DNA of 64,000 bases from a virus (Duplodnaviria; Heunggongvirae; Uroviricota; Caudoviricetes). The translations under genes were made by a program, and so were the position numbers. The stretch lies in the IMG/VR virus record IMGVR_UViG_2654587772_000002. One strand, given 5' to 3'. This document shows positions 934 to 60,945 of this stretch, piece by piece; within the stretch, counting starts at the first letter, position 1; the number at the start of each line of letters is the position of its first letter. Under the pieces are notes generated by a model. That model had not been told where the DNA came from and ran no database searches. It saw nothing but the letters and a program-made list of their open reading frames with translations.

Positions 934-1354
934 CCTGTGCGAGATTTATTACGTAACTTCTGCGGATTTGCTGAGTAACAGGGAAAATCCGATACAACGG
1001 GTTAATGAACGAGTCGCCATGCGTAACCATGACGTTGAAATGCCACAGTCGCTCTCCTTTACCCATATATTCAGTGGGTATGTACAACCATTCACTGTTT
1101 TCGCCCTGTTCAGCCGACGTCAGACAACGTTGTTCGCCTTCAATCACTGTCGTCGGCTTCTGAACATCGCGGATCCAATATCTGACCGTTGCGCCGCGCA
1201 AAAACGGGAATTTAGACCGGTATTTGAACGGCACCCGAATGAAACCCGGTTTAATTTCCACATCACCAAGTTCTAAATGCGTGATGTCCTTGCGTTTTAG
1301 CAAATAGCGATCGGCTAAGGCTAACGCAAGAACGCATACACCCCAGCCAATCAT
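911..1354 (-). CDS. Hypothetical protein with N-terminal hydrophobic segment
   Basis: 147-aa ORF, N-terminal GVCVLALALA hydrophobic stretch; overlaps neighbours by a few nt (operon-like). Confidence 0.4.
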   Translation of the reverse strand: MIGWGVCVLALALADRYLLKRKDITHLELGDVEIKPGFIRVPFKYRSKFPFLRGATVRYWIRDVQKPTTVIEGEQRCLTSAEQGENSEWLYIPTEYMGKGERLWHFNVMVTHGDSFINPLYRIFPVTQQIRRSYVINLAQDVSDDEK

Positions 1355-1680
1355 TTCCCACCTCCCTTTTTCACCAAACTTGTAAGAACATTCAGAATGC
1401 TATCGATATTCACTCGTTTCATCCCTGAAATCACCTCATGACCGTTATTGCTGGCTATCGTTACCATTAAGTACGTAATTGATAACTCCCAGCCTTCGTG
1501 TTGCCCCAATAGGTACGCCACCGCGCCAGCTGTCACTGCAACAAAGATCTCCGTAACCAATCCCAACAAGTTGCCAGACTGGCGACCATCTCGGACATCC
1601 ATCAGGAACGTGCCTATCCCACCAATTACTGAAAGCAGGAGCGCAATAGCAACTGGAGCTAATTCCTGTGTGTCAAGCAC
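1351..1680 (-). CDS. Small membrane protein, holin-like
   Basis: 109 aa, two to three predicted TM helices (LLSVIGGIGTFLM, IFVAVTAGAVAYLLG), charged C-terminus; topology typical of holins but family not confirmed. Confidence 0.4.
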   Translation of the reverse strand: MLDTQELAPVAIALLLSVIGGIGTFLMDVRDGRQSGNLLGLVTEIFVAVTAGAVAYLLGQHEGWELSITYLMVTIASNNGHEVISGMKRVNIDSILNVLTSLVKKGGGK

Positions 1681-1752
1681 AAGTTCCCTCCTACGTTGTC
1701 AGGAGGTAATGGTATGCAAAGTAACTTCTCAACCGGTCATGTTACTTGACAT

Positions 1753-1778
1753 CCTCCACGTCCTTTAGAGCGTGGAGG
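1753..1778. other. Perfect 8-bp stem / 10-nt loop hairpin immediately 5' of intron-like GTGCG
   Basis: cctccacg-tcctttagag-cgtggagg; 4 nt upstream of GTGCGCCC at 1783. Confidence 0.5.
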
Positions 1779-1782
1779 ATGT

Positions 1783-2640
1783 GTGCGCCCAGCATGGGCG
1801 CGATCTTGGAGGTGAAAGCCCTCCCGCGAGCTGACCACAGCGAGCGAAAGGAAGTGCAACTGCGTGAGGGCGGCTAGGCGTGGGGAGGAAGCACGGAATG
1901 AACCCGTGAGCCGATGAACAAGAATCGGATATGAGGCGCGATGGAGCAAGGCGAGCAGGCACATCACTGCGAAGCTTTCGTGACAAAGTCGCGTAGATCC
2001 GACGGTTGTGCGGGGAAGGATCGCGTTCTTACCTGGGGAGTTCTCGCCTCATGCCTGAAAGGGCAACGTCGTAAGACGGAGCGAGAAGTCAGCAGAGGCC
2101 GTAGTAGTCAGGACTCCGACGAAGGGCCGAACGAGAAGGAAAGCCAAAAGATATGACTCTTGACAGGACATTGCGTCAGAAGCCGGGGAAGCCCGGTACG
2201 GACCCGCATGCCGGGTGGTGTGGCAGGGGCGCAGCCTTGTGCTCCCCCCTATGCCGATCAAGCAGAACATTGTGCTGGGCCTCTGACGCATCTCCTTGAT
2301 GGTCTTGGCATCGTGCTTAAGTGGATTGGTGTCGTCTCTGATAGGCTCATGGAGGCAGAATGAAACTCAAAAATCCGGGACAGCACGCAAAACAGGCTGC
2401 ACAAAAAGCGCAGGTTGCGTAGGAGTGGAATCCCGCTCCCAAAAAATGGTGCAGAAGTTGCGGCAGTGGTCATCCGACGCACTGGAAAATAACAAACCCG
2501 CCGTGACCAGAATCGGAGGCCTGAGGGAGTGACCGTAAAACCGGATAACCCAGGCAGCAAATACCCGCTGGATGAGGCATGGTTCCGGCAGATAATACCG
2601 AAAACCGCCAGACACACTGGATAATCAGTAGAAATAACCC
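1783..2640 (+). ncRNA. Group II intron 5' fragment (ribozyme domains I-III plus decayed start of the RT/maturase ORF), truncated at the 3' side
   Basis: Begins GTGCGCCCAG as group II introns do; GC-rich, no long ORF on either strand; short frames near 2430-2640 read like RT N-terminal remnants (..NKPAVTRIGG.., ..RQIIPKTARH..); ends abruptly at AT-rich DNA. Confidence 0.45.
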
Positions 2641-2651
2641 ATTAAAATCAT

Positions 2652-2657
2652 TATAAT
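2652..2657 (+). promoter_or_regulatory. Candidate -10 element (TATAAT) for the acetyltransferase moron
   Basis: tataat about 22 nt upstream of ATG at 2679 in AT-rich leader; -35 is weak. Confidence 0.3.
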
Positions 2658-2678
2658 AATTGGGCACATTATTATATT

Positions 2679-3242
2679 ATGCTGAATAATAGAGACATGA
2701 ATATTAATGAACTTAAAGACTGTATTCACTATGAAGTAATCGGTAGCGAGCGTCCTTTCTCCTGGCGAAAGGCAATTGTTCGCGCAATAAAACATAGAAG
2801 AGTTCGTTATTTATTTTGGTGGCGCATAGCCAAATACCTTTTTGATAAAGGCGGATACTGTCGGAAGATTGCGGGGAAAATGGAACGTTTCATTCTTGAT
2901 AAATATAGTGTAACAGTCCCTTTAACTGTAAATATAGGGAAAGGCTTTGATATTTCTTATCTCAACGGTGTTGTTATCGGTCACAAAGTAACCATTGGTG
3001 AAAATTGTTCAATAAAACCAGGGGTAACTATTGGGCTACGTGGTGATTTTAATGATATGGATATTGTTATAGGACATAATGTGACCATTGGTTGTAATGC
3101 CACCATTCTTGGTGGCAAAGTGCGTATAGGAAACAATGTCACAATAGGTGCTCATGCATTGGTATTGCATGATATTCCTGATGATTCAACATTCATCACT
3201 AAATTTCAGTCTGAAGTTATCTGCTCGTCCTCTTGCACATAA
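2679..3242 (+). CDS. Hexapeptide-repeat (left-handed beta-helix) acetyltransferase; candidate surface-polysaccharide O-acetyltransferase moron
   Basis: Tandem [LIV]-G-x-x-x-x hexapeptide repeats ([53 protein letters not shown]); AT-rich; convergent with tfa, 3' ends overlap 37 nt. Confidence 0.75.
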
Positions 3243-3823
3243 CCCTGATTCATCAGCTCTGGCCATACGATATCCGGAGCTGTACTGGTGTCAATTCGAC
3301 TCACTAATACTCTGTATTTTCTCCAGGAATCCAGTTGTGAATTTTCCTCGGTTGTTGCTATTTCAAGATTAACTGCATCCTGCAGAATTGCGATGTTATC
3401 TGTTGCCTCCTGAATCAACCTTGCCTTTTTCTCTTCCGCTTCCCGTATCCGAAACAGTTTTTCTGCTTCCTCATCCTTCACCCAGGATACGCCGTCCCAC
3501 TTCTGATACTCCCCTGCTGGCGACAACCAGGTGACATTCTCTGGTAACGGTCCGAGTTCAGAAATAAACAACGCGTCCCCCGATGCCACGTCATAGACCG
3601 TTTTACCACGATGGTCTTCAACAATAATCCATGATTCATTTTCACTGTTAAAAACTGCCACAAAGCCAGCAGGAATTTCCGGTGGGGCGATATCTGTAGA
3701 ATTAGCTGGTAGCCCTGTATGAGGTGGAATATATGCGTCACCTTCACCAATAAACTCATTAGTTCCGGCGAGCAGGTTATAAATTTTTACAGTACGTGAT
3801 TGTTCACTCATTCTGAATGCCAT
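3206..3823 (-). CDS. tfa: Tail fibre assembly protein (lambda Tfa-like)
   Basis: N-terminus [48 protein letters not shown] matches lambda Tfa as recalled. Confidence 0.85.
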
Positions 3824-4713
3824 TATGCAAGCCTCACAATATAATTAAATGCGATGTTTTTAACGGTGTTTTCCGAGTTACCAGCAGCGTTAACGGTGAT
3901 GGTGTGTCCATGTGAACCAATCGCAACAGAGTGCGTATGAGCGCCAATATCAACTGTATGTGCATGCGCCCCTGCACTTGCAGCGGTGCCTGATACTGAG
4001 TGGGTGTGTGCACCAGAAGAAGGCACAGTTCCATTCCCCACCACAGTGCCGCTTGATGAGCCATCAAGCCAGTCGAAATTCATACCGCCACCATCTGGTC
4101 TCCTTAATGGAACGGTATGAGTATGTGCGCCAGCACTATTTGCAGTACCAGATACATTGTGGGTATGTGCACCTGTGTTATTCGTTGATTTAGTACCGTA
4201 ATCAAACGAAGATGTGGTTTTCGTACCCAAATCCGTATTGGATGCGCTGGCGCTGTGGGTGTGCGATTTAATGCCATCCTGTTCCAGAGACAATACGTCC
4301 CGACCACTGGCGGGTTTGCCCTTGATTGTCCAGCCACGCATATCCGGGATCACGCCTGACGGATAAGCGGCTGCAAGTTTCGGGTATGCAGATTTGTCAA
4401 AAGTCTGTCCCTGCATCAGGGCGTAACCAGACGGCACAGTATCTGATGGCCACGGATGCGGAACACCAACAGGAAGGACCTCAATATCCCCGGAACCATC
4501 AAACGAAACGTTATTAATTTTACGGGCTGTTTTCAGCTTTGTAGCCGTTGAGGCATTGCCGGACAGCTCACCAGAAATGCCACCAACAACTGTTAGATCA
4601 CCAGTTATTGTGCCGCCTGAACTTTCCAGTTTTTTAGCAACATCACTCTTAATAGAGTCGATTTCTTTTTTCAGATTAGTTATATCTGCTGGTATCGTTG
4701 TCACTGTTGCCAT
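3823..4713 (-). CDS. stf: Side tail fibre C-terminal module (lambda Stf-like) with its own start
   Basis: [52 protein letters not shown] ... GAHTH repeats ... [31 protein letters not shown] match lambda Stf C-terminus. Confidence 0.8.
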
Positions 4714-41810: not shown

Positions 41811-42304
41811 TGCTGACCCCACAAACAGATTTCACGCTCAATCTCACGACGAGTCATGAGACCTTTCCATTGCTTACCGCCAGCATATGTCCAGCGACGT
41901 AGCTGATCACATGCGCCTTTGATATCGCCCTGGTTTATTTTGCGAAGAAGCGTCGATGTTCTGAAATTGCCAGCACCCACGTTGTAAACGAATGAGTAAA
42001 GAGCGCCGCGCGTTGTTTCCGGTATATCGACTTTGATGTACGGGTTAATTTGTCTGGCGACCGTGGCAAGGTCTTTATTCAAGAGTGTTTTGCATTCTGC
42101 TTTGGTATACGTTTTACCGAGCATGATGTCTTTTCCTGTATGCCCGTGACATACAGTCCATACACCAACAATATCTTTGTATGGTATGTAGCTGACACCT
42201 TCCAGACCATCGTTACCACTTGGGCCAGTGATTAACACTGATGCTATAGCAATTGCTCCGCCACCAATAGCAGCAGCAACGACTTTTCGTAATGATGGAG
42301 GCAT
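41807..42304 (-). CDS. R: SAR endolysin (lysozyme with N-terminal signal-anchor-release domain)
   Basis: Gly/Ala-rich N-terminal SAR helix ([18 protein letters not shown]) followed by lysozyme-type domain; phage 21 R-like. Confidence 0.85.
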
Positions 42305-42519
42305 TATTCACCTCTCGCAGCCTTGCGCTTATCTTCTTTAATCTTGAAATAAAGGTTTGTCAGGTACGTCAGCAGGCCAAATACCAGACTACCCAGCACA
42401 CCGATTGCAGCCCACTGTGACGGAGTTACTCTATCGAGCAACTGTAAAAACCAGTAGCCAGCACTGCCTGCGGAGGTGCCGTAGGCAATGCCTGTTGAAA
42501 TTTTGTCCATGGATTTCAT
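42304..42519 (-). CDS. S: Pinholin (phage 21 S-like) with dual-start MKSMDK motif
   Basis: [26 protein letters not shown]...[13 protein letters not shown] matches S21 as recalled; upstream in-frame extension to 42576 probably not translated. Confidence 0.85.
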
Positions 42520-42619
42520 AGCCTCACCTCCGCACGGAACGGATGGCATAGTTATTATGTGTAGGCTTTCAGACACATCAATCAGAGCCTTAATTGATAT
42601 ATATGCTGGAGACGATGCA

Positions 42620-46664: not shown

Positions 46665-46717
46665 TCAACAATTTGCACTTAAGGTATTTATTTTCCCAAA
46701 CACATAGAGAGTAAATT

Positions 46718-48109
46718 ATGACTGAGAACACGACTCCAACAGCAGACTTTAGTCCTAGTAAAAGATTTTTTGTGAGTATGCTAACTCGAGATATCGACTT
46801 AAACGATGCCATACTTGATCTGCTTGATAACTGCGTCGATGGGGCTTTACGTACAATAAAAGACACAAAAAAAACTTCAAAACCATATGAAGGATTTTAT
46901 GCGAAACTTACGATTAATAAAGATGTCTTTATTATAGAAGACAATTGCGGAGGTATCCCTAAAAGCTTCCGAGAATATGCTTTTAAAATGGGACGACCCC
47001 ATCAAAAAGAAGAAGAAAATGAAGGCACCGTTGGCGTCTATGGTATTGGTATGAAAAGAGCCATTTTTAAAATGGGTAGAGATTGCTCAATACAATCGAA
47101 TAATCCCGATGGCGCATTCACTGTAGATATAACACCTGATTGGATCGATGGTGATGGTTGGAAAATACCGATGCACGAGAGTGACTATGATAACAAAAAT
47201 CCAACAGGCACAACTATAGAGATAAAAAAACTCCATTCTAATGTGGCACAAAAATTTAATGAGAGCACATATCTTACTGATCTCTTTTTACAGATAAAAC
47301 ACTCATTGTCATTTATTATTCAAAAAGGATTTAAAATAGAATTAAATGGAGTTGTTGTTGAACATAATCCGATTAACATCATAACTGATCATTCTAAAAT
47401 AGAACCATACATATATAAAGCTAAAATAGACGATGTTGATATCGATTTAGTTGTTGGCTTCTATAAAAATTTAGAAGATGACAATGATGATGTTTTAGAA
47501 AAAAGGAGTTCTGATGATGCTGGATGGACTGTCATTTGCAATGACCGCGTTGTTCTATATTGTGATAAGACACATCTCACAGGTTGGGGCTTTGCTAATG
47601 TACCAAGGTTTCATACCCAATTTATAGCAATTTCTGGGGTTGTTCGCTTTACCAGTAAAAACCCAGAAAAATTACCAATAACAACAACGAAACGAGGTGT
47701 CGATCTTAGTTCTACATTGTACAATGATGTACGAAATAAAATGATTGAAGGGATGATGCATTTTATTCGATTCACCAATCAGTGGAAAGGTGAGCATCTT
47801 GAAGAAGGGAAAAAATTACTTAAGTCAGCTCAGTCACATGAAGCTCAATCTTTATTTGAAATTACCCCACAATCAACTCCAGAAGATAAAAAAAATAACT
47901 GGTCCAACCCTAATAGAAACAAAAATGAGTGGCGATATACACCTAAGCTGCCTACCCCAGTAAAAAAAAGCTCTACTGTACGAATAATCTTCACCAGAGA
48001 GAAAGAAGATGTTAAAATTTTATCTAAATATTTCTTTGGACATGAAGATGCTAGCGCTTCTGATGTGGGGATGCAATGCTTTGATACGGTGATTGAAGAG
48101 GTGAAGTGA
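46718..48109 (+). CDS. GHKL-family (MutL/MORC/histidine-kinase-like) ATPase with about 330-aa C-terminal domain of unknown function
   Basis: Bergerat-fold motifs: N box LLDNCVDGA, G1 box IEDNCGGIP, G2 box GVYGIGMKRAIFKMG in the first ~120 residues. Confidence 0.8.
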   Translation: MTENTTPTADFSPSKRFFVSMLTRDIDLNDAILDLLDNCVDGALRTIKDTKKTSKPYEGFYAKLTINKDVFIIEDNCGGIPKSFREYAFKMGRPHQKEEENEGTVGVYGIGMKRAIFKMGRDCSIQSNNPDGAFTVDITPDWIDGDGWKIPMHESDYDNKNPTGTTIEIKKLHSNVAQKFNESTYLTDLFLQIKHSLSFIIQKGFKIELNGVVVEHNPINIITDHSKIEPYIYKAKIDDVDIDLVVGFYKNLEDDNDDVLEKRSSDDAGWTVICNDRVVLYCDKTHLTGWGFANVPRFHTQFIAISGVVRFTSKNPEKLPITTTKRGVDLSSTLYNDVRNKMIEGMMHFIRFTNQWKGEHLEEGKKLLKSAQSHEAQSLFEITPQSTPEDKKNNWSNPNRNKNEWRYTPKLPTPVKKSSTVRIIFTREKEDVKILSKYFFGHEDASASDVGMQCFDTVIEEVK

Positions 48110-49098
48110 TGTCTGGACAATACATTCCCTATCACTTAAGGCATAATAAGTCTATTGATAGAGAGATTTTTCTCGAAAGCCTAAACCTCTTAAGCAAAAG
48201 ACTAAATATTCAAGAATATACATATATAGGTTTTGGTGGTCCGATGCTTGAAGATTTTAGAATCATGCATAATCGTATCGCTCTTTCTGATATGATTTCT
48301 CTCGAAGAACAAGAGTCTACTCACATCAGACAAAAATATAATTTGCCTTATAATTGTATTGATTGTAAGCTAATATCAGCTCATGACTTTATTCTTGATT
48401 ATAGTTTTTCTAAACCATCAATAACATGGTTAGACTATGCCTCCCCGAAAAAAATACAAACGGATCTAGATGATATACACTTACTAAGTACTAAAGTAAG
48501 CTCTTTTGATATTTTGAAGGTCACCTTCCCCATAAATCCTAGTTCTTATTACCAACGTAGAGTTGGAGAAAGTTTAGATATTTTTAAAGAAGCTTTTATT
48601 AATTCATTAAAATCATTGCTTGGGAAAAAGTATCTTGATTTTAATCTTCAGATATCAAATGCAGATCTTTCAGATCGTAAGATTAAAGCTCTTTTAATAC
48701 GAATTATTACAAACGCTTTTAGATCAGCAATAGAACGTGGTCTTTCAGGACGTAAGGATAAGATTCAGTATTACCCATTATCTTTAAATCAATATAATGA
48801 TGGCAGTCATACCATGTTGACAATATCAGGTTTTTTCTCCTCAGAACAAGAATATATAGAGTTATCTAAGGCATGCGACCTTTCTAACTGGCAATTTTAT
48901 TCAACAAATTGGGAAGACGTGCAAGAAATAGCAATACCAACACTAACAATTAAAGAAAAGATAAATTTAGATAGTAAACTGCCTGATAAAGAAGCATATC
49001 AGGCAGCCGCTGAAGAGTTCTCTTTAAACGAAAATGAACGGGATAACTATTATAAATACTATAGGTTATACCCTAACTTCCAAAGAATTATGGTTTAA
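48106..49098 (+). CDS. Unknown 330-aa protein translationally coupled to the GHKL ATPase (candidate effector/specificity subunit)
   Basis: Stop/start overlap (GTGATG) with upstream gene; AT-rich; no recognisable motif. Confidence 0.6.
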   Translation: MMSGQYIPYHLRHNKSIDREIFLESLNLLSKRLNIQEYTYIGFGGPMLEDFRIMHNRIALSDMISLEEQESTHIRQKYNLPYNCIDCKLISAHDFILDYSFSKPSITWLDYASPKKIQTDLDDIHLLSTKVSSFDILKVTFPINPSSYYQRRVGESLDIFKEAFINSLKSLLGKKYLDFNLQISNADLSDRKIKALLIRIITNAFRSAIERGLSGRKDKIQYYPLSLNQYNDGSHTMLTISGFFSSEQEYIELSKACDLSNWQFYSTNWEDVQEIAIPTLTIKEKINLDSKLPDKEAYQAAAEEFSLNENERDNYYKYYRLYPNFQRIMV

Positions 49099-50217
49099 AT
49101 ATTCGGGCTGTACTCTTTTATTTAATAAATTGTACAGCCCCTTTAATATATATTCAGCAACTATTGGTGACACGCTATTTCCTATTTGTCTGAAACTATG
49201 CCATTTAGTTACATGAAAGCGAAACCAATCAGGGAAGCCTTGTAATCTAGCAGCTTCTCTTGGTGTAATCACTCTTGGATGATAAGGGTGGATCGGCCTG
49301 ACGGCTTGAAAGCTTCCTTTATCTCTAGCGGTTCCCGCCCTTAAAGTCGGGCAAAAACCATTTGGATCTAATCTTGTAGATCTTGAAATTTTATCAGTTT
49401 CCCCAAAAGATAAGGAAGCATAACGCTCTTGGACGATTTTGCTATGTAATGTTCCGGTACATCCAGATATGATATTATTTTTTAACTTAGCGATCGATTC
49501 TGTATCACCAACATTCCGAGGGATCTGCCCCCATAATTTTTCATAAAATCCCCCTTTTCGATCTTTTTTAATTGTTCGCCAACTCTCAGAGTCTGATTGC
49601 CAATTGGCATCGATAATATCTGGTAATCCATACAAAGCATCTTTTACAGTAACCGGATCAATCATTTTAGGCATAAATACTTCATCTGAAATATCAAGCT
49701 TCAATGATTTTTTTACACCGATAAAAAAATATCTAGTTCGAATAGTTGGAGCACCATAATCAGATGCTTTTACCTTGATGGGATCAAGAATATCATAATC
49801 ACCGCTAACCAAATTAAATGCTTTATTTCTAATGCCAGAATATTTCTCTTGCATAATACCTGGAACATTTTCTGCCAAAAAGAATAATGGCTGTAATTCT
49901 GATACTAAACGGTAGAAATGCATGTAAAGCTGATTCCTGCTATCATCAGGATTCCCCTTGCCTATTGAACTAAATCCTTGGCACGGAGGACCGCCAATAA
50001 TACCATCTATGGGCATATCGTTTTTAAAAAAACCCTTAATTATTTCTGCATTTAGTAAAGAAACATCTTCTTGGACGTGCAAACTTCTTGGAAAATTAAT
50101 TGCGTGAGTATTAATAGCATGTTGATCAATTTCAACTGCCATTTTAACATCAAATCCAGCACGTGCAGCACCAAGACTTAGACCTCCAACGCCAGAAAAC
50201 AAATCTATTACATTCAT
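49066..50217 (-). CDS. DNA (cytosine-5)-methyltransferase
   Basis: Motif I DLFSGVGG, motif IV GGPPCQGFS, motif VI ENV (FLAENVPG), motif X GNSVSP; about 150-aa variable target-recognition region; convergent with partner gene, 3' ends overlap 33 nt. Confidence 0.9.
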   Translation of the reverse strand: MNVIDLFSGVGGLSLGAARAGFDVKMAVEIDQHAINTHAINFPRSLHVQEDVSLLNAEIIKGFFKNDMPIDGIIGGPPCQGFSSIGKGNPDDSRNQLYMHFYRLVSELQPLFFLAENVPGIMQEKYSGIRNKAFNLVSGDYDILDPIKVKASDYGAPTIRTRYFFIGVKKSLKLDISDEVFMPKMIDPVTVKDALYGLPDIIDANWQSDSESWRTIKKDRKGGFYEKLWGQIPRNVGDTESIAKLKNNIISGCTGTLHSKIVQERYASLSFGETDKISRSTRLDPNGFCPTLRAGTARDKGSFQAVRPIHPYHPRVITPREAARLQGFPDWFRFHVTKWHSFRQIGNSVSPIVAEYILKGLYNLLNKRVQPEYLNHNSLEVRV

Positions 50218-53287: not shown

Positions 53288-54076
53288 TTACCCCCTGAAG
53301 CCTGGCGGGATCGCACTATCCGGTAACGAGACGGTGTTAACCTGTCGGAGTAACGTCTCAGGTCGAACACCTTTCGGCGCGAACAAGCCCTGGTATTCGT
53401 TGGCGATGCTGTGTCGAATCACCTGCTCAGGTGAAAAACCCTGCTGGCGGAATTTTTCCAGCTCCCGTATCGCCCCGTTAGCGCCCTGCTCCGTTCGAAT
53501 CGGTTTTCGCAATGCCTGCCTGAACTGAACCCACTCATGCCAGAGTGTTTCCGGCAACCAGTCAGGCAGCTCGATAGCCTCCGGTTCGAATTTTTTAGAC
53601 GCTCGTTTTTGGCGAGGGGGATTTAGGGGGAGATAAGTATTTATATCTTCCTCTTTCTCTTCCTCTGGTAACGCTTTTTGATCCGTTTTTGTAACGCTGG
53701 CAGCGTTACCTTTTCGTTTCAGTTCTCGTATTTTTGTTACTCTCTCGTTTGTAACCGCCCGTTTTTTAGAGCTTTTCCCGTTATGGCGCTCAAAGTTAGG
53801 AAGCGACAACACACCATTAGTTTCGACCAGCCATCCAACCTGAATTAACGCATCAGCAAAACCAGCCATAAAAGTGATGCGATCTATTGCACTTTTTGTA
53901 ACGCCGCGAGCGTTACACTCTGCGTTACCGTCTATCATTTGTTGATCCGCCCATGCCCAGAAGCGAATGACTTTCCCTAATGCGGCATCTGGATCAATAT
54001 TCAGAATCTCAGCAAGCCTGAATATTTCCGGCTTATCCGGCGTAATAACTTCGAGCTTTATCCAGTTTGAAGCCAT
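53288..54076 (-). CDS. ydaU: Replication initiation (O-like) protein
   Basis: 262 aa, position between ydaT-like and DnaC-like genes; Lys/Glu-rich linker. Confidence 0.65.
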   Translation of the reverse strand: MASNWIKLEVITPDKPEIFRLAEILNIDPDAALGKVIRFWAWADQQMIDGNAECNARGVTKSAIDRITFMAGFADALIQVGWLVETNGVLSLPNFERHNGKSSKKRAVTNERVTKIRELKRKGNAASVTKTDQKALPEEEKEEDINTYLPLNPPRQKRASKKFEPEAIELPDWLPETLWHEWVQFRQALRKPIRTEQGANGAIRELEKFRQQGFSPEQVIRHSIANEYQGLFAPKGVRPETLLRQVNTVSLPDSAIPPGFRG

Positions 54077-54153
54077 TTGTTTTCACCTTGTAACGCTCGC
54101 AGCGTTACATTTAACTGATACCGAACAAAACAGTTCGGTACGATTAATTTCAA

Positions 54154-54576
54154 TCAATGCACTACGACAGAATCGCTAGGAGAACCGCCGCCGCTGAAAT
54201 GCGCTTTCCGGTAAACGGCTTGGACTGCATCATCATGCGCATCAATTGCCGTACTTAACGCTTCCTGCGCCGCCAGTAATGCACGGCGTTCCAGGGTATC
54301 GAAGATGCAGAGTCGGTGACGCAGCTCGCGCGGAAGGATTGCCAGAATTGCTGGGATCAGCTTCTGAATTTTTTCCCTTTGCGCATTCGTTTCACCTTTC
54401 AACCAACGGTGATAGATATTCTGCTGATTGTTCCAGTCCTTGCCTGGAACCAGGGGCAATTCGCCGCCCCCCTGGCGCAGATATTCTTCAGTAATTGCAT
54501 TGGCTACCCATGCCTGCCTTTTTTCGGCTGCCAGGGCAAACAACACCGATTCGATGTGCTCATGCTTGATTTTCAT
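54154..54576 (-). CDS. ydaT: YdaT-like regulatory protein
   Basis: 140 aa, immediately downstream of the Cro-like gene, as in Rac. Confidence 0.65.
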   Translation of the reverse strand: MKIKHEHIESVLFALAAEKRQAWVANAITEEYLRQGGGELPLVPGKDWNNQQNIYHRWLKGETNAQREKIQKLIPAILAILPRELRHRLCIFDTLERRALLAAQEALSTAIDAHDDAVQAVYRKAHFSGGGSPSDSVVVH

Positions 54577-54598
54577 GAATCATTTGCCTCTTGATGTT

Positions 54599-54895
54599 TC
54601 AGGTATGATCAAATGAGGATTTGTTACTGTCATTTAGTTGCTTCACTGACATATTCTGCGAACAACATGCCGAACGTCGTAAATATGACCAGTCAATATC
54701 AGGACGAAGTTCTTCGCACAGCACCTCACCTCTTGTTGCACGTTCAATTGCTGGACATCTCTCGGCAGGCAATTGACGTACCCCTTTGATCCATTGATTT
54801 ACGCTTGGAGGTGATACACCTAAAAGCCTAGCCATTGCTGTTTGCCCACCGACAACAGCACAAGCTTGCTTGAATGAATAGTTCTCTTTTTTCAT
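54599..54895 (-). CDS. ydaS: Cro-like HTH regulator
   Basis: 98 aa, HTH (QTAMARLLGVSPPSVNQWIKG), divergent from the repressor gene. Confidence 0.75.
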   Translation of the reverse strand: MKKENYSFKQACAVVGGQTAMARLLGVSPPSVNQWIKGVRQLPAERCPAIERATRGEVLCEELRPDIDWSYLRRSACCSQNMSVKQLNDSNKSSFDHT

Positions 54896-54924
54896 CGAAT
54901 GAACTCCAAAAACACACAGAGATA

Positions 54925-54990
54925 TTAGGCGACGCCTAATACAAATGTCAATAGGCTATGCCTAATACAATGAGAGTAGGGATTGCCTAA
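54925..54990. promoter_or_regulatory. OR-like operator array: three TTAGGC-N3-GCCTAA-type palindromes between ydaS and racR
   Basis: ttaggcgacgcctaa (54925-54939), ataggctatgcctaa (54951-54965), gtagggattgcctaa (54976-54990); about 25-bp spacing. Confidence 0.6.
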
Positions 54991-55018
54991 TGCAATGAGC
55001 ATAGGAGAATATTAAGCA

Positions 55019-55495
55019 ATGCTTAGTGGTAAAGACTTAGGCCGAGCGATAGAGCAGGCCATTAACAAAAAAATCGCATCGGGATCCGTCAAATCAAAGG
55101 CGGAGGTCGCACGCCACTTCAAAGTCCAACCACCATCAATCTATGACTGGATTAAGAAAGGCTCCATAAGTAAAGATAAACTTCCAGAATTATGGCGTTT
55201 CTTTGCTGATGTTGTTGGTCCAGAGCATTGGGGGCTTAACGAATACCCCATACCAACCCCCACCAATCCAGATACAAAAAGTGAACTTTTAGATATAAAC
55301 AACCTTTATCAAGCAGCCTCTGATGAAATAAGAGCGATTGTAGCTTTCCTGTTATCTGGAAATGCTACAGAACCAGATTGGGTTGACCACGATGTTCGCG
55401 CCTACATAGCAGCGATGGAAATGAAAGTGGGTAAGTATCTGAAAGCTCTAGAATCTGAACGGAAAAGCCAGAACATCACAAAAACTGGAACTTAA
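55019..55495 (+). CDS. racR: Prophage repressor (CI-like)
   Basis: 158 aa, N-terminal HTH, divergent from the Cro-like gene and flanked by operator arrays. Confidence 0.75.
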   Translation: MLSGKDLGRAIEQAINKKIASGSVKSKAEVARHFKVQPPSIYDWIKKGSISKDKLPELWRFFADVVGPEHWGLNEYPIPTPTNPDTKSELLDINNLYQAASDEIRAIVAFLLSGNATEPDWVDHDVRAYIAAMEMKVGKYLKALESERKSQNITKTGT

Positions 55496-55572
55496 ACTTA
55501 TATGGTCTGACGGAAAACTCCTGGATTCCGTTATTTAACCCCCCCATCACTTTCTCCAGTCGCCATCACCTA

Positions 55573-55631
55573 TTAGGTTACGCTTAAAACATTAGGCATA
55601 GCCTATTGACAATCAATTAGGCATTACCTAT
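55573..55631. promoter_or_regulatory. OL-like operator array: three copies of the same palindrome downstream of racR
   Basis: ttaggttacgcttaa (55573-55587), ttaggcatagcctat (55592-55606), ttaggcattacctat (55617-55631). Confidence 0.55.
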
Positions 55632-55803
55632 AGTTCCAGCATACCACCCACCCCGCCCCACAGAACGCCAGGCAATACTTCGAGTTACCAGGTAGTGGTC
55701 AGGGGTTAAGTAGCCAGCCCGAGGCGTATGAACATGACGGCGGGATTCAAATTTTGCAGTGCAGCAGTTAGTTCCGCCACCCGGCGTTAAGGGGATAGAT
55801 AAG

Positions 55804-55938
55804 ATGGTGCATTACGAAGTAGTTCAGTATTTGATGGATTGTTGCGGTATCACTTACAACCAGGCTGTGCAGGCTTTACGCAGCAACGACTGGGATCTCT
55901 GGCAGGCAGAAGTCGCTATACGTAGCAACAAGATGTGA
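55804..55938 (+). CDS. ydaG: Small early-left protein (44 aa)
   Basis: MVHYEVVQYLMDCCGITYNQAVQALRSNDWDLWQAEVAIRSNKM; symbol from recalled Rac order and size. Confidence 0.45.
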   Translation: MVHYEVVQYLMDCCGITYNQAVQALRSNDWDLWQAEVAIRSNKM

Positions 55939-55948
55939 GATTCGCAAA

Positions 55949-56104
55949 ATGCAAAAAATCGACCTCGGCAACAACGAATCCCTGGTGTGCGGCGTGTTCC
56001 CCAACCAGGATGGAACGTTCACTGCCATGACGTATACCAAAAGCAAAACATTTAAAACCGAAACTGGTGCGCGCCGATGGTTGGAGAAGCACACAGTAAG
56101 CTAA
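55949..56104 (+). CDS. ydaF: Small early-left protein (51 aa)
   Basis: MQKIDLGNNESLVCGVFPNQDGTFTAMTYTKSKTFKTETGARRWLEKHTVS; overlaps sieB 3' end by 4 nt. Confidence 0.45.
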   Translation: MQKIDLGNNESLVCGVFPNQDGTFTAMTYTKSKTFKTETGARRWLEKHTVS

Positions 56105-56589
56105 CGATTAAAACGTCTACTCCTGCTGTTCCAGAATAACTTCATAAAATGGGAGTATTTTTCGGTGACGAGATAATAAGAACAGTTTGCGCTATCACTC
56201 TGATGTTGAATGATGCCCTTCCGTTCTAATTTTTTCATAACCGGGTTACGGCAAGGAGAAGTGATAATAAGATTTCCTGTTTTAAGGAAATCTTTAAATA
56301 CAGCGATTTCTTTCTCAGATAAACGAAGCAATACTCGTTGCTCTGGTAGTAATGAATAATGCTTTTGAATATGTGCTCGCAATCTTGAGAAGGAAATGGC
56401 GACCACGAAAGAAAAGGCAAAAACGATAATCTGAAAGAGCCAAGGTATTTCAGTATAAGCATTGAATGCGACAGTAAACTCTTTCGGTATCAGCCAGAGA
56501 GTGAGACCAAAAATGATAATCGTATACATAAGTCTTTCGAGTGGCTCGTTAGCAAAAAGTTTCAACAATGGAGTAAATACATCCAACAT
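56101..56589 (-). CDS. sieB: Superinfection exclusion protein B
   Basis: 162-aa product from internal start MLDVFTPLLKLFANEPLERLMYTIIIFGLTLWLIP with TM segments; antisense to the early-left operon. Confidence 0.8.
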   Translation of the reverse strand: MLDVFTPLLKLFANEPLERLMYTIIIFGLTLWLIPKEFTVAFNAYTEIPWLFQIIVFAFSFVVAISFSRLRAHIQKHYSLLPEQRVLLRLSEKEIAVFKDFLKTGNLIITSPCRNPVMKKLERKGIIQHQSDSANCSYYLVTEKYSHFMKLFWNSRSRRFNR

Positions 56590-57030
56590 ATCAATAACTC
56601 TCAACTGTAAGGGTATTGAAATGTTAACACAAGCTCTCGCTGTAGGGGTATAGCCGAGACCACCGAAGCCCGGAGGTGGTGAAATAAAACCGGGCACAAC
56701 ACGAAGGCGCATTTCCGATATCCATAAAGAGTCGGTCTTGTCTGTTAAATTTAAATGGTGGGAGTGCGCCTCCGGTTGTAAATAACGACATTGCTGTGTG
56801 TAGTCCTGGCGGCATCAGTTTTTTTCTTGAAGTTCGGCTGATGTCCGCCCTTTTTAAAGTGAATTTTGTGATGCGGTGAATGCGGCTAAGCGCACGTGGC
56901 ACAGTTAAAAGTCATGTTTGTCCTTATTGGTTTGGGTGGGAAAGCCGACTGTAATTGTTAACTGGTTGCAGTCACCTGGAGGCACCAGGCACCGCATCAA
57001 CAAAGTTCATTTGTAAAAATGGAGATAATT

Positions 57031-57252
57031 ATGATTGCACATCACTTCGGAACTGATGAAATACCACGTCAGTGTGTGACTCCTGGCGATTATGTTCTTC
57101 ATGAAGGCCGGACATATATTGCCTCGGCAAACAATATTAAAAAGCGAAAACTATATATTCGTAACCTGACCACAAAAACATGCATTACTGACCGCATGAT
57201 TAAAGTCTTCCTCGGTCGTGATGGTTTACCTGTAAAGGCGGAGTCATGGTGA
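57031..57252 (+). CDS. kilR: Cell-division inhibitor KilR
   Basis: 73-aa product [46 protein letters not shown]... as recalled for Rac KilR; ORF-track start 57019 adds 4 residues. Confidence 0.7.
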
Positions 57253-57422
57253 TGACTAAGAAAATAAAATGTGCTTACCACCTTTGCAAAAAAGACGTTG
57301 AAGAAAGCAAAGCTATTGAAAGAATGCTTCACTTCATGCACGGGATTTTATCAAAAGACGAACCGAGAAAATATTGCAGTGAAGCTTGTGCCGAAAAAGA
57401 CCAGATGGCACATGAACTTTAA
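57252..57422 (+). CDS. ydaE: Small Cys/His-rich protein YdaE-like
   Basis: 56 aa, start overlaps kilR stop (TGATG); C..H..C pattern. Confidence 0.55.
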   Translation: MTKKIKCAYHLCKKDVEESKAIERMLHFMHGILSKDEPRKYCSEACAEKDQMAHEL

Positions 57423-57496
57423 TTAATTGACTATTCGAAACTGAATTTATGCCAGAAATGGCAGGTATTCGCTCAACCTTAATTAAGGAGAAAAAC

Positions 57497-57772
57497 ATGA
57501 TTACCAATTATGAAGCCACTGTTGTAACTACCGATGACATTGTTCACGAGGTGAATCTGGAAGGAAAGCGCATTGGCTACGTAATTAAAACAGAAAATAA
57601 AGAAACCCCATTCACTGTGGTTGATATCGATGGTCCATCAGGCAACGTAAAAACACTTGATGAAGGTGTCAAAAAAATGTGCCTGGTGCATATCGGAAAG
57701 AATCTGCCCACAGAAAAAAAAGCCGAATTTCTGGCAACTCTAATTGCAATGAAATTAAAAGGTGAAATCTGA
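57497..57772 (+). CDS. racC: RacC-like protein
   Basis: 91-aa product from ATG at 57497 (MITNYEATVV...), between ydaE and recE. Confidence 0.55.
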   Translation: MITNYEATVVTTDDIVHEVNLEGKRIGYVIKTENKETPFTVVDIDGPSGNVKTLDEGVKKMCLVHIGKNLPTEKKAEFLATLIAMKLKGEI

Positions 57773-57873
57773 AAGAAATAGCCTGCGTATGGCGCAGGCT
57801 ATGAACAGTGTGTATCCGGCAAGATCATTCACTGAACAAAACGAATTTTAATCTGAGTTGAGGTTAAAAAACA

Positions 57874-60800
57874 ATGAGCACAAAACCACTCTTCCTGTTA
57901 CGGAAAGCGAAAAAATCATCCGGTGAACCTGACGTCGTCCTGTGGGCAAGCAACGATTTTGAATCGACCTGTGCCACTCTGGACTACCTGATCGTTAAGT
58001 CAGGTAAAAAACTGAGCAGCTATTTTAAAGCTGTTGCCACGAATTTTCCTGTCGTTAATGACCTGCCCGCTGAAGGTGAGATCGATTTTACCTGGAGTGA
58101 ACGCTATCAACTCAGCAAAGACTCCATGACATGGGAACTAAAACCGGGAGCAGCACCAGACAACGCTCACTATCAAGGCAATACCAACGTCAACGGCGAA
58201 GACATGACTGAGATTGAGGAGAATATGCTACTCCCAATTTCTGGCCAGGAACTGCCCATTCGTTGGCTTGCTCAACACGGTAGCGAAAAACCGGTAACGC
58301 ACGTTTCACGCGACGGACTCCAGGCATTACACATTGCTCGGGCTGAAGAACTACCGGCTGTTACTGCCCTGGCTGTTTCCCACAAAACCAGCCTGCTCGA
58401 CCCGCTGGAAATTCGCGAACTCCACAAACTGGTTCGTGACACTGACAAAGTTTTCCCTAATCCTGGTAATTCAAACCTGGGACTGATAACTGCTTTTTTC
58501 GAAGCATACCTGAACGCTGACTACACCGATCGAGGACTGCTGACAAAAGAGTGGATGAAGGGTAATCGTGTTTCACACATCACTCGCACGGCTTCCGGTG
58601 CTAATGCTGGCGGCGGAAACCTCACCGATCGCGGCGAAGGTTTCGTACACGATCTGACGTCACTGGCGCGCGACGTAGCCACTGGCGTACTGGCCCGTTC
58701 AATGGATCTGGACATCTATAACCTTCATCCGGCACACGCTAAACGCATTGAGGAAATTATCGCTGAAAATAAACCGCCCTTTTCTGTTTTCCGCGACAAA
58801 TTCATCACCATGCCTGGCGGGCTGGATTATTCCCGCGCCATCGTGGTTGCGTCCGTAAAAGAAGCACCAATTGGGATCGAGGTCATCCCCGCGCACGTCA
58901 CTGAATATCTGAACAAAGTACTGACTGAAACCGATCATGCCAACCCTGATCCGGAAATCGTGGATATTGCCTGCGGTCGCTCCTCTGCCCCGATGCCGCA
59001 GCGAGTAACAGAAGAAGGAAAACAGGATGATGAAGAAAAACCGCAACCATCTGGAACAACGGCAGTTGAACAGGGAGAGGCTGAAACAATGGAACCGGAC
59101 GCAACTGAACATCATCAGGACACGCAGCCGCTGGATGCTCAGTCACAGGTAAATTCTGTTGATGCGAAATATCAGGAACTGCGGGCAGAACTCCATGAAG
59201 CCCGGAAAAACATTCCATCAAAAAATCCTGTCGATGCCGATAAATTGCTTGCTGCATCACGTGGTGAATTTGTTGACGGAATTAGCGACCCAGACGATCC
59301 GAAATGGGTAAAGGGGATCCAGACTCGCGATTGTGTGTACCAGAACCAGCCAGAAACGGAAAAAACCAGCCCGGATATGAATCAACCTGAGCCAGTAGTG
59401 CAACAGGAACCGGAAATAGCCTGCAATGCCTGCGGCCAGACTGGCGGGGATAACTGCCCTGACTGTGGTGCGGTGATGGGCGACGCAACATACCAGGAAA
59501 CATTCGATGAAGAGAGTCAGGTTGAAGCTAAGGAAAATGATCCGGAGGAAATGGAAGGCGCTGAACATCCGCACAATGAGAATGCTGGCAGCGATCCGCA
59601 TCGTGATTGCAGTGATGAAACTGGTGAAGCGTCAGCTCCTGTAGCAACTGAAATCATGTGGCCGTCATATTTCGAGCCTGGCCGCTATGAAAACCTCCCG
59701 AACGAGGTTTATCACTCCGCCAACGGAATAAGCAGCACGATGCTGAAGGATGCCCGTATCAGCCTGATGTATTACCATGGACGGCACATTGCCGGAACTA
59801 TTCCGAACGAGGAAAGTGATGCACTGCTGCGTGGGCGGATCATTCACAGCTATGTTCTGGAAACGGATAAATTCGCTGATGAATATGCCATTCCGGTACC
59901 GGTTCCTGAATATGTGGTTACTACTTCTAACGAACTGATCGCCATCATTAAAAAACACAATGCCAGTCTGCCAGCACTGATGACACCAGAGCAGATGAAA
60001 GAGTGGATCGAAAGCTACAACAGCACTCTTATACAGCCACTGTCTGTAAGTGCCGGGGCCGAAGAAACAGGCATCCTTTACGGTTCGCTTCCGGTGGAAT
60101 TTCGGCGTATTCCTGAGGGGGAAAAACACACAGCATCAGCAATGAAAGCCTGTATTAAAGAATACAACGCAAGCCTCCCTCCTCTGTTGAAAACCAGTGG
60201 AGCACGGGAGCAGCTTCTGGATCAAATTGAAACTGTAGCCCCAGAACTAGCAAAAAAAGAACGTGCTAAATCTTTGCCTTACAACATCAGTGGCACAAAA
60301 GAGCAATTAACCGAAATCGCACGGCAAATTCGCCCGGAACTGGTGACTCTGGAGGACTGGCAAAAACGCCAGCAAGAAGAAAACGCCGGGAAAACGTTTA
60401 TCAGTCCGGATATGTATGAACAGGCAAAAAATATTCACGCGGCACTACAAAACAATACCGATGCAGCAAGGTTACTCAACCACCCGGATCGCAAATCTGA
60501 AATCAGCTATTTCGGGTTTGATGAAGAAACCGGGCTGGAAATCAGGGTCCGTCCTGATATCGAAATCCGGCTGCCATACGAAAGCATTTGCGCTGACGTG
60601 AAGTCAGTCAGCCTCGGTTATGTGCGACAGGAACGACTTAAAGATCGCCTGCACCGTGAAATTATTGAACGTGATTATCATCTCAGCGCCGCAATGTATT
60701 GCGATGTGGCAAACCTGGACAAATTTTTCTGGATCTTCGTCAACAAAGATGCTGGCTATCACTGGGTGGCAGTCGTGGAAGCCTCGCAGGAACTCCTGGA

Positions 60801-60945
60801 ACTTGGTCGACAGGAATATCGCCGGACGCTACGCCAGATAAACGAAGCCCTGGAGACAAACAACTGGCCAGCACCGATTACCGAAAGTTATACCGACGAA
60901 TTAAACGACTTTGATCTTCGTCGTCTTGAAGCACTGAGCATCTGA
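57874..60945 (+). CDS. recE: RecE-family 5'-3' exonuclease (exonuclease VIII-like), 1023 aa
   Basis: N-terminus [36 protein letters not shown] as recalled for RecE; acidic linker; C-terminal PD-(D/E)xK-like region (..[20 protein letters not shown]..). Confidence 0.8.

Follow-up and report, generated by a model that had tools for sequence, protein, structure and literature searches.

Among the few transcription factors that E. coli K-12 cannot do without is RacR, which is essential because it keeps the toxic genes ydaS, ydaT, and kilR of the prophage silent. K-12 Rac, an annotated cryptic prophage of about 23 kb (PMC6765115), is the closest described relative of the locus analysed here. Binding of RacR to its racR-ydaS intergenic region was demonstrated by EMSA and ChIP-qPCR (PMC5700373), and DNase I footprinting defined the promoters and the operator consensus (T/A)TAGGC-n3-GCCTA(T/A) (PMC9638921). 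The racR mRNA is leaderless and begins at the start codon, position 55019 in our coordinates (PMC9638921). YdaS reportedly does not repress racR (PMC9638921), and the circuit logic therefore differs from that of lambda. RacR forms an octamer in solution by size exclusion (PMC11014345), and a Rho-dependent terminator, trac, is reported to guard or silence kilR (PMC4150792). Published experiments also show that RacR represses PydaS and that lowering RacR raises ydaG, ydaF, kilR, ydaE, racC, recET, xisR, and intR 40- to 100-fold. RacR occupancy has been shown for the right cluster only (PMC5700373, PMC9638921); K-12 Rac publications describe the intergenic (right) operators alone and not the cluster downstream of racR.

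A described analogue is CP-933P of E. coli O157:H7, a lambdoid cryptic prophage whose PaaR2/YdaS/YdaT switch has operators OR1-3 and OL1-3 (PMC8630535). Like Rac, it combines a repressor, a YdaS-type Cro, and a YdaT-type CII, with a leaderless repressor gene and an octameric repressor, and its PL-like promoter has been described together with operators resembling those at PR (PMC8630535). The PaaR2 operator consensus, GTTTAGTAA, differs from the Rac repeat TTAGGC-N3-GCCTAA (PMC8630535). Since both repressor and operator repeat differ, so does immunity; CP-933P also carries a toxin-antitoxin pair downstream of the repressor gene, unlike Rac.

The window, a 64-kb stretch of viral DNA, holds a Rac-type prophage at ttcA that is full length, its terminase, coat, tail, and lysis genes all being present. 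Its immunity region shares genes, order, and the ttcA integration site with K-12 Rac: ydaT and ydaS on the minus strand, then racR, a ydaG-like ORF, ydaF, (sieB), kilR, ydaE, a racC-like gene, recE, recT, ralR, xisR, intR, and ttcA. This annotated order bears out the gene identities and layout of a preliminary description made from the sequence. RacR is identical to K-12 RacR at 156 of 158 residues, including all of residues 1-61, and YdaS at 97 of 98; the products of the divergent ydaS and ydaT genes match the Pfam YdaS and YdaT families. The phage record vB_EcoS-683R6 encodes a RacR identical to that of the window. Together with the intact ORFs and promoters, this identity fits the preliminary statement that the immunity switch is intact, and we infer the same.

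Scanning the whole window with the 15-bp consensus at up to 2 mismatches yields six matches, all inside two clusters flanking racR (6/6), which are the six sites of the preliminary description at the same positions. Shuffled sequences (n = 100) average 2.2 such matches and never exceed 5 (0/100 reach six); at this stringency the motif is confined to the clusters and not spread through the window at similar density. At 3 mismatches the motif is not enriched across the window (19 found vs 23.7 expected), and two of these matches fall in the racR region, at 55012-55026 (TTAAGCAATGCTTAG, across the racR ATG) and 55037-55051. A position weight matrix (PWM) trained solely on 78 sites from non-Escherichia loci places seven local sites within the top eight of the window, ranked 54925, 54951, 55592, 55617, 55012, 55573, 42481 (13.5 bits), and 54976 (13.2 bits), with a mean best score of 12.3 bits on shuffles. 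The off-cluster match at 42481 scores at chance level and is therefore rejected as an operator. Coordinates of all features are collected in Table 1.

Table 1. Genes, operators, promoters, and hairpin of the immunity region, in window coordinates.
Feature	Position	Strand	Sequence	Description
ydaS	54599..54895	-		Cro-like HTH protein, 98 aa; Pfam YdaS_toxin and P22_Cro matches
PydaS (PR-equivalent)	54922..54951	-	-35 TTGACA (54951..54946), -10 TAATAT (54927..54922)	18-nt spacer
OR1 (published O1)	54925..54939		TTAGGCGACGCCTAA, TTAGGC-GAC-GCCTAA	perfect palindrome, 0 mismatches
OR2	54951..54965		ATAGGCTATGCCTAA, ATAGGC-TAT-GCCTAA	1 mismatch; abuts PydaS -35
OR3	54976..54990		GTAGGGATTGCCTAA, GTAGGG-ATT-GCCTAA	2 mismatches
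OR4	55012..55026		TTAAGCAATGCTTAG, TTAAGC-AAT-GCTTAG	3 mismatches; across racR start codon at 55019
racR	55019..55495	+		repressor, 158 aa; N-terminal HTH domain, C-terminal domain without Peptidase_S24
Hairpin	55509..55532	+		7-bp stem then UUAUUU, past racR stop; candidate weak terminator
OL3	55573..55587		TTAGGTTACGCTTAA, TTAGGT-TAC-GCTTAA	2 mismatches; PWM 14.8 bits
OL2	55592..55606		TTAGGCATAGCCTAT, TTAGGC-ATA-GCCTAT	1 mismatch
PL-equivalent promoter (predicted)	55606..55634	+	-35 TTGACA (55606-55611), -10 TATAGT (55629-55634)	17-nt spacer
OL1	55617..55631		TTAGGCATTACCTAT, TTAGGC-ATT-ACCTAT	2 mismatches; over spacer and -10 of PL

The cluster between racR and ydaS is the published RacR operator and is already known. 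The three upstream sites of the preliminary description are present as given, but the set has four members, at -94, -68, -43, and -7 relative to the racR ATG. The missed site, OR4, carries 3 mismatches in Escherichia and for that reason escapes the 2-mismatch scan. OR1 extends across the PydaS spacer and over 3 nt of the -10 element; its half-sites are invariant in K-12, O103, and O157 relatives, with the N3 spacer changing from GAC to TTA, and in K-12 it is footprinted first, at the lowest RacR concentration (PMC9638921). OR3 repeats the OR2 unit in tandem at 25 bp, within a 25-bp x 3.2 array at 54926-55005 (TRF), and its TTGCCT is a possible -35 element of the leaderless racR promoter. The OR3 PWM score lies below the best chance match in the window (42481) and barely above the shuffles, and the scanned non-Escherichia loci have one site at most in this region (about -42). 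OR4 ranks fifth by PWM (15.0 bits) and has been published as an operator overlapping the racR ATG, footprinted in K-12 (PMC9638921). It occupies the best-kept position in the family, -7 from the ATG in all scanned non-Escherichia loci but one (L018). PydaS, which drives ydaS-ydaT, matches the promoter consensus at 10/12 positions and is identical in sequence to its K-12 counterpart, which was mapped by primer extension and by mutating the -10 element (PMC9638921).

Alignment with the K-12 Rac immunity region extends over the OR and OL DNA, with invariant half-sites and varying N3 spacers. All eight OR half-sites are identical; OR1, OR3, and OR4 match throughout, and OR2 is one spacer base apart. 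OL1 and OL2 are likewise identical, with OL3 carrying 3 mismatches in K-12 vs 2 here. The -10 of the published K-12 PracR2 (AGTAAG) is changed in the window.

The cluster after racR, located 78-136 bp past its stop codon, has the sequence features of an ordinary lambda-style left operator and is undescribed in the literature found. Searches of the openly accessible literature yielded no description of a Rac OL or PL. Three matches stand where the preliminary description placed three downstream sites, but they comprise two strong sites plus a weak one, OL3. The predicted PL matches the promoter consensus at 11/12 positions, with a predicted start at ~55641, and points into ydaG, ydaF, kilR, ydaE, racC, recE, recT, ralR, xisR, and intR. 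The PL -35 element begins with the final T of OL2, and this A-to-T departure from the palindrome is kept in all loci, as expected if the base is shared with TTGACA. OL2 is the exact reverse complement of OR2. PL and PydaS are each bracketed by two sites, and the two promoter-operator units are mirror copies.

Between racR and this cluster, the hairpin listed in Table 1 is a candidate weak terminator that may separate racR from PL. RNAalifold on four sequences, representing only two independent lineages, finds two of its pairs kept through two-sided changes; other genera have a hairpin and T-run directly upstream of OL2. An antiterminator RNA, put-like or structured in some other way, was considered for the conserved PL leader (55641-55815) and rejected for lack of evidence: the leader folds no more stably than its shuffles (z = -0.52), and HK022 is absent from the phage matches. 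An Rfam search of 54000-58000 at E <= 1 matched neither the operator region nor the PL leader. The sole Rfam matches in that interval are sub-threshold, DicF-like and STnc100-like, and lie upstream of kilR.

Loci from Enterobacterales to Betaproteobacteria keep the module [site]TGACA-N5-[site]TAT downstream of their RacR-type repressor genes: it is present in 14 diverse genome loci and, among viruses, in 57 distinct variants. These 14, in which near-identical Escherichia copies are not counted and whose sources are Enterobacterales and Betaproteobacteria, come from 25 genome loci encoding a RacR-type N-terminal domain, and each combines a cluster upstream with a downstream pair of sites spaced 25 bp from each other. 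The pair contains the same embedded promoter, sits between 60 bp and 2.5 kb past the repressor gene, and is conserved into Burkholderiales despite unrelated flanks. A reciprocal search seeded with the DNA module alone found 120 viral contigs; a RacR-type gene is present in 111 of them, with the module downstream and co-directional in every case (111/111).

Betaproteobacterial loci (Achromobacter, Burkholderia, Herbaspirillum, and Hydrogenophaga) encode repressors whose N-terminal DNA-binding domain is 40-75% identical to that of RacR, with the same half-sites and the same PL module, PL lying 0.07-2.5 kb past the repressor gene. Their upstream sites number up to three (about -67, -42, and -7), never four, and OL3 is missing. 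These repressors bear a LexA/CI-type Peptidase_S24 C-terminal domain, unlike RacR, for which Pfam gives no Peptidase_S24 match and just a sub-threshold HTH_17. A search of the RacR sequence against solved structures at E <= 1 gave no match. Operator-repressor covariation among RacR homologues is uninformative as a specificity test, because all homologues found share a conserved N-terminal domain and therefore a conserved half-site. The Rac-like phage vB_EcoS-666R9 bears on this point: it has the same flanking genes, a different repressor, and a different repeat (..AAGTACA..) at both cluster positions, and the DNA it shares with the window picks up again some 10 bp past the -10 of PL. This concerted swap of repressor and repeat supports the proposal that the sites define immunity specificity.

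We conclude that the two clusters are very probably the operators of a Rac-type immunity switch, with RacR bound at the 15-bp inverted repeats. RacR dimers would recognise (T/A)TAGGC-N3-GCCTA(T/A) through the N-terminal helix-turn-helix domain. OR1 and OR2, bracketing the ydaS-ydaT promoter, would shut PydaS off; OR3 and OR4 would cover the -35 region and start point of the leaderless racR transcript, so that RacR's own level would be set by these two sites. On the left, OL2 shares a base with the PL -35 and OL1 shares bases with the -10. Bound RacR would consequently occlude RNA polymerase, keeping the kil, recombination, and excision genes silent, and OL3 would be either a weak accessory site or one in decay. 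What we infer from this arrangement is that RacR binds OL1 and OL2 and that PL serves as the early-left promoter. RacR-mediated looping between the clusters, whose outer sites are 692 bp apart, is possible, and early-left derepression could in part be indirect or reflect read-through from racR.

A different origin for the downstream cluster would be a duplicated PR/OR relic with no regulatory role, early-left expression being governed by racR read-through and termination (trac) or by another factor. In favour of a relic, the units are clear paralogues, OL2 being the reverse complement of OR2, Rho-dependent termination is reported to silence kilR (PMC4150792), and the literature search found no direct OL binding data, nor binding or transcription data for the cluster downstream of racR in any strain. 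A relic would decay, however; instead, loci from Enterobacterales to Burkholderiales retain the pair, the 25 bp between its sites, and the embedded -35 and -10 elements, even though the distance to the repressor gene varies widely and the flanks are unrelated. The co-directional downstream placement in all 111 viral contigs and the joint replacement of both clusters in the heteroimmune phage also speak against it, leaving a relic very unlikely. Still less credible, to the point of being negligible, is that the palindromes act as RNA or DNA hairpins, such as racR transcription terminators, instead of protein-binding operators. A terminator scan does flag 55593-55605 on the minus strand, with a 5-bp stem and a T-rich tail, but the stems would be 5-6 bp with a 3-nt loop, half-site bases are kept without compensatory changes as the N3 loop varies freely, and the same sequence at OR is footprinted by RacR (PMC9638921). 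Because base identity is conserved and pairing is not, the OL2 palindrome was rejected as an intrinsic terminator, and the separate hairpin past the racR stop is the better terminator candidate.

The number of left operators is more evenly balanced. PL may have just two functional operators, OL3 being a decaying or fortuitous half-site, in which case the layout is four plus two and the three-plus-three symmetry with lambda is superficial; we place this a little short of an even chance. OL3 is absent outside Escherichia in the loci compared, where a terminator hairpin occupies its position, and it stands 19 bp from OL2 (centre to centre) vs 25-26 bp elsewhere. Its right half drifts within Escherichia (GCTCAA in K-12, GATCAA, GCCCAA, ACCCAA), giving 2-4 mismatches. 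Against this, no Escherichia variant departs from TTAGGT in the left half, not even relatives only 88% identical overall in which neighbouring bases have changed, and at the motif-scan rate the probability of a site with <=2 mismatches arising by chance within 30 bp of OL2 is about 0.002. Lambda OL3 and OR3, moreover, are weak yet functional.

Set beside lambda, the Rac switch as read here, with both clusters as RacR operators, has the same divergent repressor and cro genes, multiple operators between them that overlap PR and PRM, and a second operator cluster over a PL that lies beyond the repressor gene and fires in that gene's direction. In both, the repressor mRNA is leaderless and the repressor forms octamers (PMC9638921, PMC11014345). 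Sites are spaced 25-26 bp centre to centre in Rac vs 23-24 bp in lambda. The operator sequences are unrelated (15-bp vs 17-bp sites); Rac has four plus two (or three) sites, one on the right from the 25-bp duplication and two strong plus one weak on the left, vs three plus three; and the clusters are about 0.7 kb apart vs 2.3 kb. No N gene follows PL in Rac, unlike lambda. RacR also differs from lambda repressor CI in having no S24 autocleavage domain, and induction therefore cannot be RecA-stimulated self-cleavage. The suggested parallel with lambda OR/OL thus holds for operator layout but not for induction.

The comparison hints at an old, portable immunity module, consisting of a RacR-type DNA-binding domain and its TTAGGC-N3-GCCTAA OR/OL promoter-operator cassette, common to gammaproteobacterial and betaproteobacterial phages. 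Within the Rac lineage of enterobacteria, an ancestral S24 autocleavage domain may have given way to a non-cleavable oligomerisation domain, and the 25-bp OR duplication may have split the operator abutting the PR -35 from that overlapping the PRM -35. The outcome would be an SOS-independent switch, with a RacR octamer bridging OR and an undescribed OL/PL about 0.7 kb away. We offer this history tentatively, at slightly under even confidence.

The preliminary reading was correct, of a largely known system, and its novelty is low; the current picture of lambdoid switches is unchanged by these results. Published work accounts for the right-hand operators only, and the conserved PL/OL module downstream of racR would provide a direct, testable route for RacR control of kilR, recET, and xis/int, and thereby of Rac excision. 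OL would also be a second DNA partner for the reported RacR octamer. The motif allows Rac-type immunity, and homo- vs hetero-immunity among Rac-like prophages, to be called by sequence alone.

The operators flanking racR comprise two clusters, OR between ydaS and racR and a putative OL downstream of racR. The preliminary description had assigned three 15-bp near-palindromes to each, and direct reading of 54500-56100 revealed all six at the positions proposed. A scan of the 64-kb window for TTAGGC-N3-GCCTAA, allowing up to two mismatches, returned these six operator sites and none elsewhere; dinucleotide shuffles (n=100) gave a mean of 2.2 matches and a maximum of 5, with six reached in 0/100. 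As matches at this threshold are confined to the operator region, the motif does not recur at comparable density across the window. At up to three mismatches, the motif is not enriched overall in the 64-kb window (19 observed vs 23.7 expected), and the operator region contains two extra three-mismatch matches, OR4 and 55037-55051. The three upstream sites were correctly placed, but the published fourth, OR4, had been overlooked.

A PWM trained on 78 sites, all non-Escherichia, ranks the matches starting at 54925, 54951, 55592, 55617, 55012, and 55573 as the top six in the window. OR3 scores 13.2 bits, versus 13.5 for a chance match at 42481 and shuffle maxima of ~12.3, and its reality rests on position and published footprints, not on score. 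The 42481-42495 match (GTAGGCAATGCCTGT, chance level), the best outside the clusters, falls within a small ORF (42304-42576, - strand; start 42518) directly upstream of a 165-aa ORF; going by position alone, our guess is that the pair encodes a holin and then an endolysin. One paper reports activation of the phi80 lysozyme gene lysN when RacR is overexpressed, via poorly defined CCTA-containing motifs (PMC6715736), and tying the 42481 match to this activation is speculative.

Operators, promoters, and the racR 3' hairpin in the window
Feature	Position	Strand	Elements or sequence	Remark
OR1	54925-54939			
OR2	54951-54965			
OR3	54976-54990			
OR4	55012-55026		TTAAGCAATGCTTAG	centre on racR ATG; three-mismatch match
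PydaS	54951..54922	-	-35 TTGACA 54951..54946, 18 nt, -10 TAATAT 54927..54922	promoter scan
Hairpin	55509-55532		hairpin, then UUAUUU (weak U-tract)	just after racR stop codon; candidate terminator
OL3	55573-55587			
OL2	55592-55606			
OL1	55617-55631			
PL	55606-55634	+	-35 TTGACA 55606-55611, 17 nt, -10 TATAGT 55629-55634	promoter scan, 11/12 consensus positions

OR1 covers the spacer and -10 of PydaS, the PR equivalent, and OR2 abuts its -35. At PL, the predicted early-left promoter, OL2 contributes the first T of the -35 and OL1 overlaps the -10. The reverse complement of OR2 is exactly OL2, and the PydaS/OR and PL/OL units are mirror-image paralogues. Centre-to-centre spacings are 26, 25, and 36 bp in the right cluster and 19 and 25 bp in the left, with 692 bp between OR1 and OL1.

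The OR half is textbook for the Rac prophage. A 2017 study noted three palindromes in the K-12 racR-ydaS intergenic region, which gave three complexes in EMSA and was also probed by ChIP-qPCR (PMC5700373). DNase I footprinting in 2022 yielded the RacR consensus (T/A)TAGGC-n3-GCCTA(T/A); PydaS and three racR promoters, one of them leaderless, were mapped in K-12, with RacR filling the operator over PydaS first and one operator spanning the racR ATG (PMC9638921). In later papers the inverted repeats number four, and RacR behaves as an octamer in size exclusion (PMC11014345). The right cluster and the lambda analogy are therefore already known. Lowering RacR derepresses ydaG, ydaF, kilR, ydaE, racC, recET, xisR, and intR 40- to >100-fold. 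The literature searched contained no description of the cluster downstream of racR or of a Rac PL, whereas an analogous OL1-3/PL has been described in the heteroimmune prophage CP-933P (PMC8630535).

Comparative analysis supports the downstream module. The OL1 and OL2 half-sites are kept in K-12 and in two relatives 88% identical across the immunity region, with variable spacers and flanks. Scanning a RacR homologue alignment against one genome per species gave 25 loci; most non-Escherichia loci have upstream sites at ~-67 and ~-42, and all except L018 have a -7 site spanning the ATG. A downstream pair exactly 25 bp apart is present in 14 diverse loci, 60 bp to 2.5 kb beyond the repressor gene, including Mixta, Morganella, Proteus, Erwinia, Pigmentiphaga, Achromobacter, Burkholderia, Herbaspirillum, and Rhodoferax. 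Its layout, [TTAGGC-N3-GCCTAT]TGACA-N5-[TTAGGC-N3-GCCTAA]TAT, is invariant in these 14 loci, placing a -35 and a -10 with a 17-nt spacer within the operator pair; the palindrome carries a conserved A-to-T break at the OL2 end because this base doubles as the first of TTGACA. Reciprocally, with the DNA module as the only query, at least 120 loci in viral contigs were matched. Among the matches listed, 111/120 have a gene with a RacR-type N-terminal domain, and in 111/111 the module is downstream of this gene and points away from it. In four of the nine other loci the module is so near an end that the repressor gene would fall outside the sequence, and the remaining five extend only ~1.4-3.2 kb towards where the repressor would be. 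Judged from sequence, OL/PL is a well-supported set of putative operators and promoter; such a module is to be expected in a lambdoid switch and does not make this a novel type of system.

The proposed 3 + 3 symmetry gives way to a 4 + 2(+1) layout. Upstream, 54926-55005 comprises 3.2 copies of a 25-bp unit (78% matches, Tandem Repeats Finder), and the tandem OR2 units 54951-54975 and 54976-55000 match at 19/25 positions. No more than three upstream sites, one 25-bp unit fewer, occur in the non-Escherichia loci scanned; tandem duplication of the OR2 unit accounts for the fourth in the E. coli lineage. The left copy retains adjacency to the PR -35, and the right copy retains TTGCCT, a probable -35 for the leaderless racR promoter. 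Downstream, OL3 is present only in Escherichia loci, its left half TTAGGT invariant and its right half drifting by 2-4 mismatches (three in K-12); many non-Escherichia loci have a hairpin plus T-run at this position instead. The chances that OL3 is functional are about even. In the hairpin following racR, two pairs survive double changes in the 88%-identical O103/O157 relatives, which represent only two lineages, and this hairpin is a candidate terminator shielding PL from racR transcription.

Phage vB_EcoS-666R9 has ydaT, ydaG, ydaF, sieB, kilR, and recE in common with the window but differs in repressor and cro. In this phage a repeat of another sequence (..AAGTACA..) is present both between the divergent genes and immediately ahead of the shared leader, with homology restarting ~10 bp past the PL -10; other matches start at ~55640. 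The repeat swap and resumed homology support the PL assignment as well as the earlier proposal that the sites define immunity specificity. The ~160-nt leader between PL and ydaG (55640-55800) is conserved in >3,400 of 5,426 complete E. coli genomes and kept in heteroimmune phages, homology beginning within ~10 bp of the predicted PL start. Its C-rich, G-poor 5' end (CCACCCACCCCGCCCCACA) resembles Rho-loading sites; the leader has no significant fold (z = -0.52) and no Rfam match.

The Rac-type prophage is integrated beside ttcA, and its immunity region (54590-55760, 1,171 bp) matches E. coli ST2747 at 100% identity. One strand carries, in order, ydaV, a ydaU-like gene, ydaT, and ydaS, and the other racR, a ydaG-like ORF, ydaF, (sieB), kilR, ydaE, a racC-like gene, recE, recT, ralR, xisR, and intR. 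RacR and YdaS match their K-12 counterparts at 156/158 and 97/98 residues. Unlike K-12 Rac, a remnant, this prophage has terminase, coat, tail, and lysis genes, and deposited phage genome records, among them one encoding an identical RacR, match the window at 97-99% identity. The window's recE (57874-60945) is a 1023-aa ORF; the K-12 product has 866 aa, and the greater length fits a less decayed prophage. A cargo block at ~46700-50200 (1129-4628 in locus L001), annotated with an ATP-binding protein, an O-methyltransferase, and a DNA cytosine methyltransferase, is possibly a moron for defence or modification. Upstream of kilR, sub-threshold Rfam matches on the + strand are DicF-like (56795-56850, 39.1 bits vs gathering 48) and STnc100-like (56852-57038, 35.6 vs 47); the sRNA KilS is annotated in K-12 between sieB and kilR. 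An E. coli Rac immunity region at 99% identity also turns up in a 5.2-kb contig (L008, JARKOR010000130.1) assigned to a 'Candidatus Nanosynbacter' bin, almost certainly a binning or contamination artefact.

The likeness to lambda OR/OL holds for the operator/promoter layout and not for induction. No Peptidase_S24 domain was found in RacR, so Rac induction cannot proceed through RecA-stimulated self-cleavage. This domain is present in betaproteobacterial homologues with a RacR-type N-terminal domain and RacR-type operators, and in some enterobacterial homologues (P0103, P0105). Most of the fusion loci (L015-L017, L020-L023, L025, L028) have the same operators and PL module as Rac; no downstream operator pair was seen in L020 or L021. 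These fusions imply that the enterobacterial RacR lineage underwent a swap of its C-terminal domain, and the N-terminal domain and operators shared despite it indicate that the lambda-like layout predates the swap. Rac further differs from lambda in having no N-like gene after PL; YdaS is reported not to repress racR (PMC9638921), and kilR silencing is reported to be reinforced by a Rho-dependent terminator (PMC4150792).

The preliminary observation holds and its interpretation is supported; what the window contains is the Rac immunity switch already known. Modestly new are the conserved PL/OL module, the site layout with its 25-bp duplication in OR, and the broad phylogenetic spread of the TTAGGC-N3-GCCTAA specificity, to which interchangeable C-terminal domains are joined.
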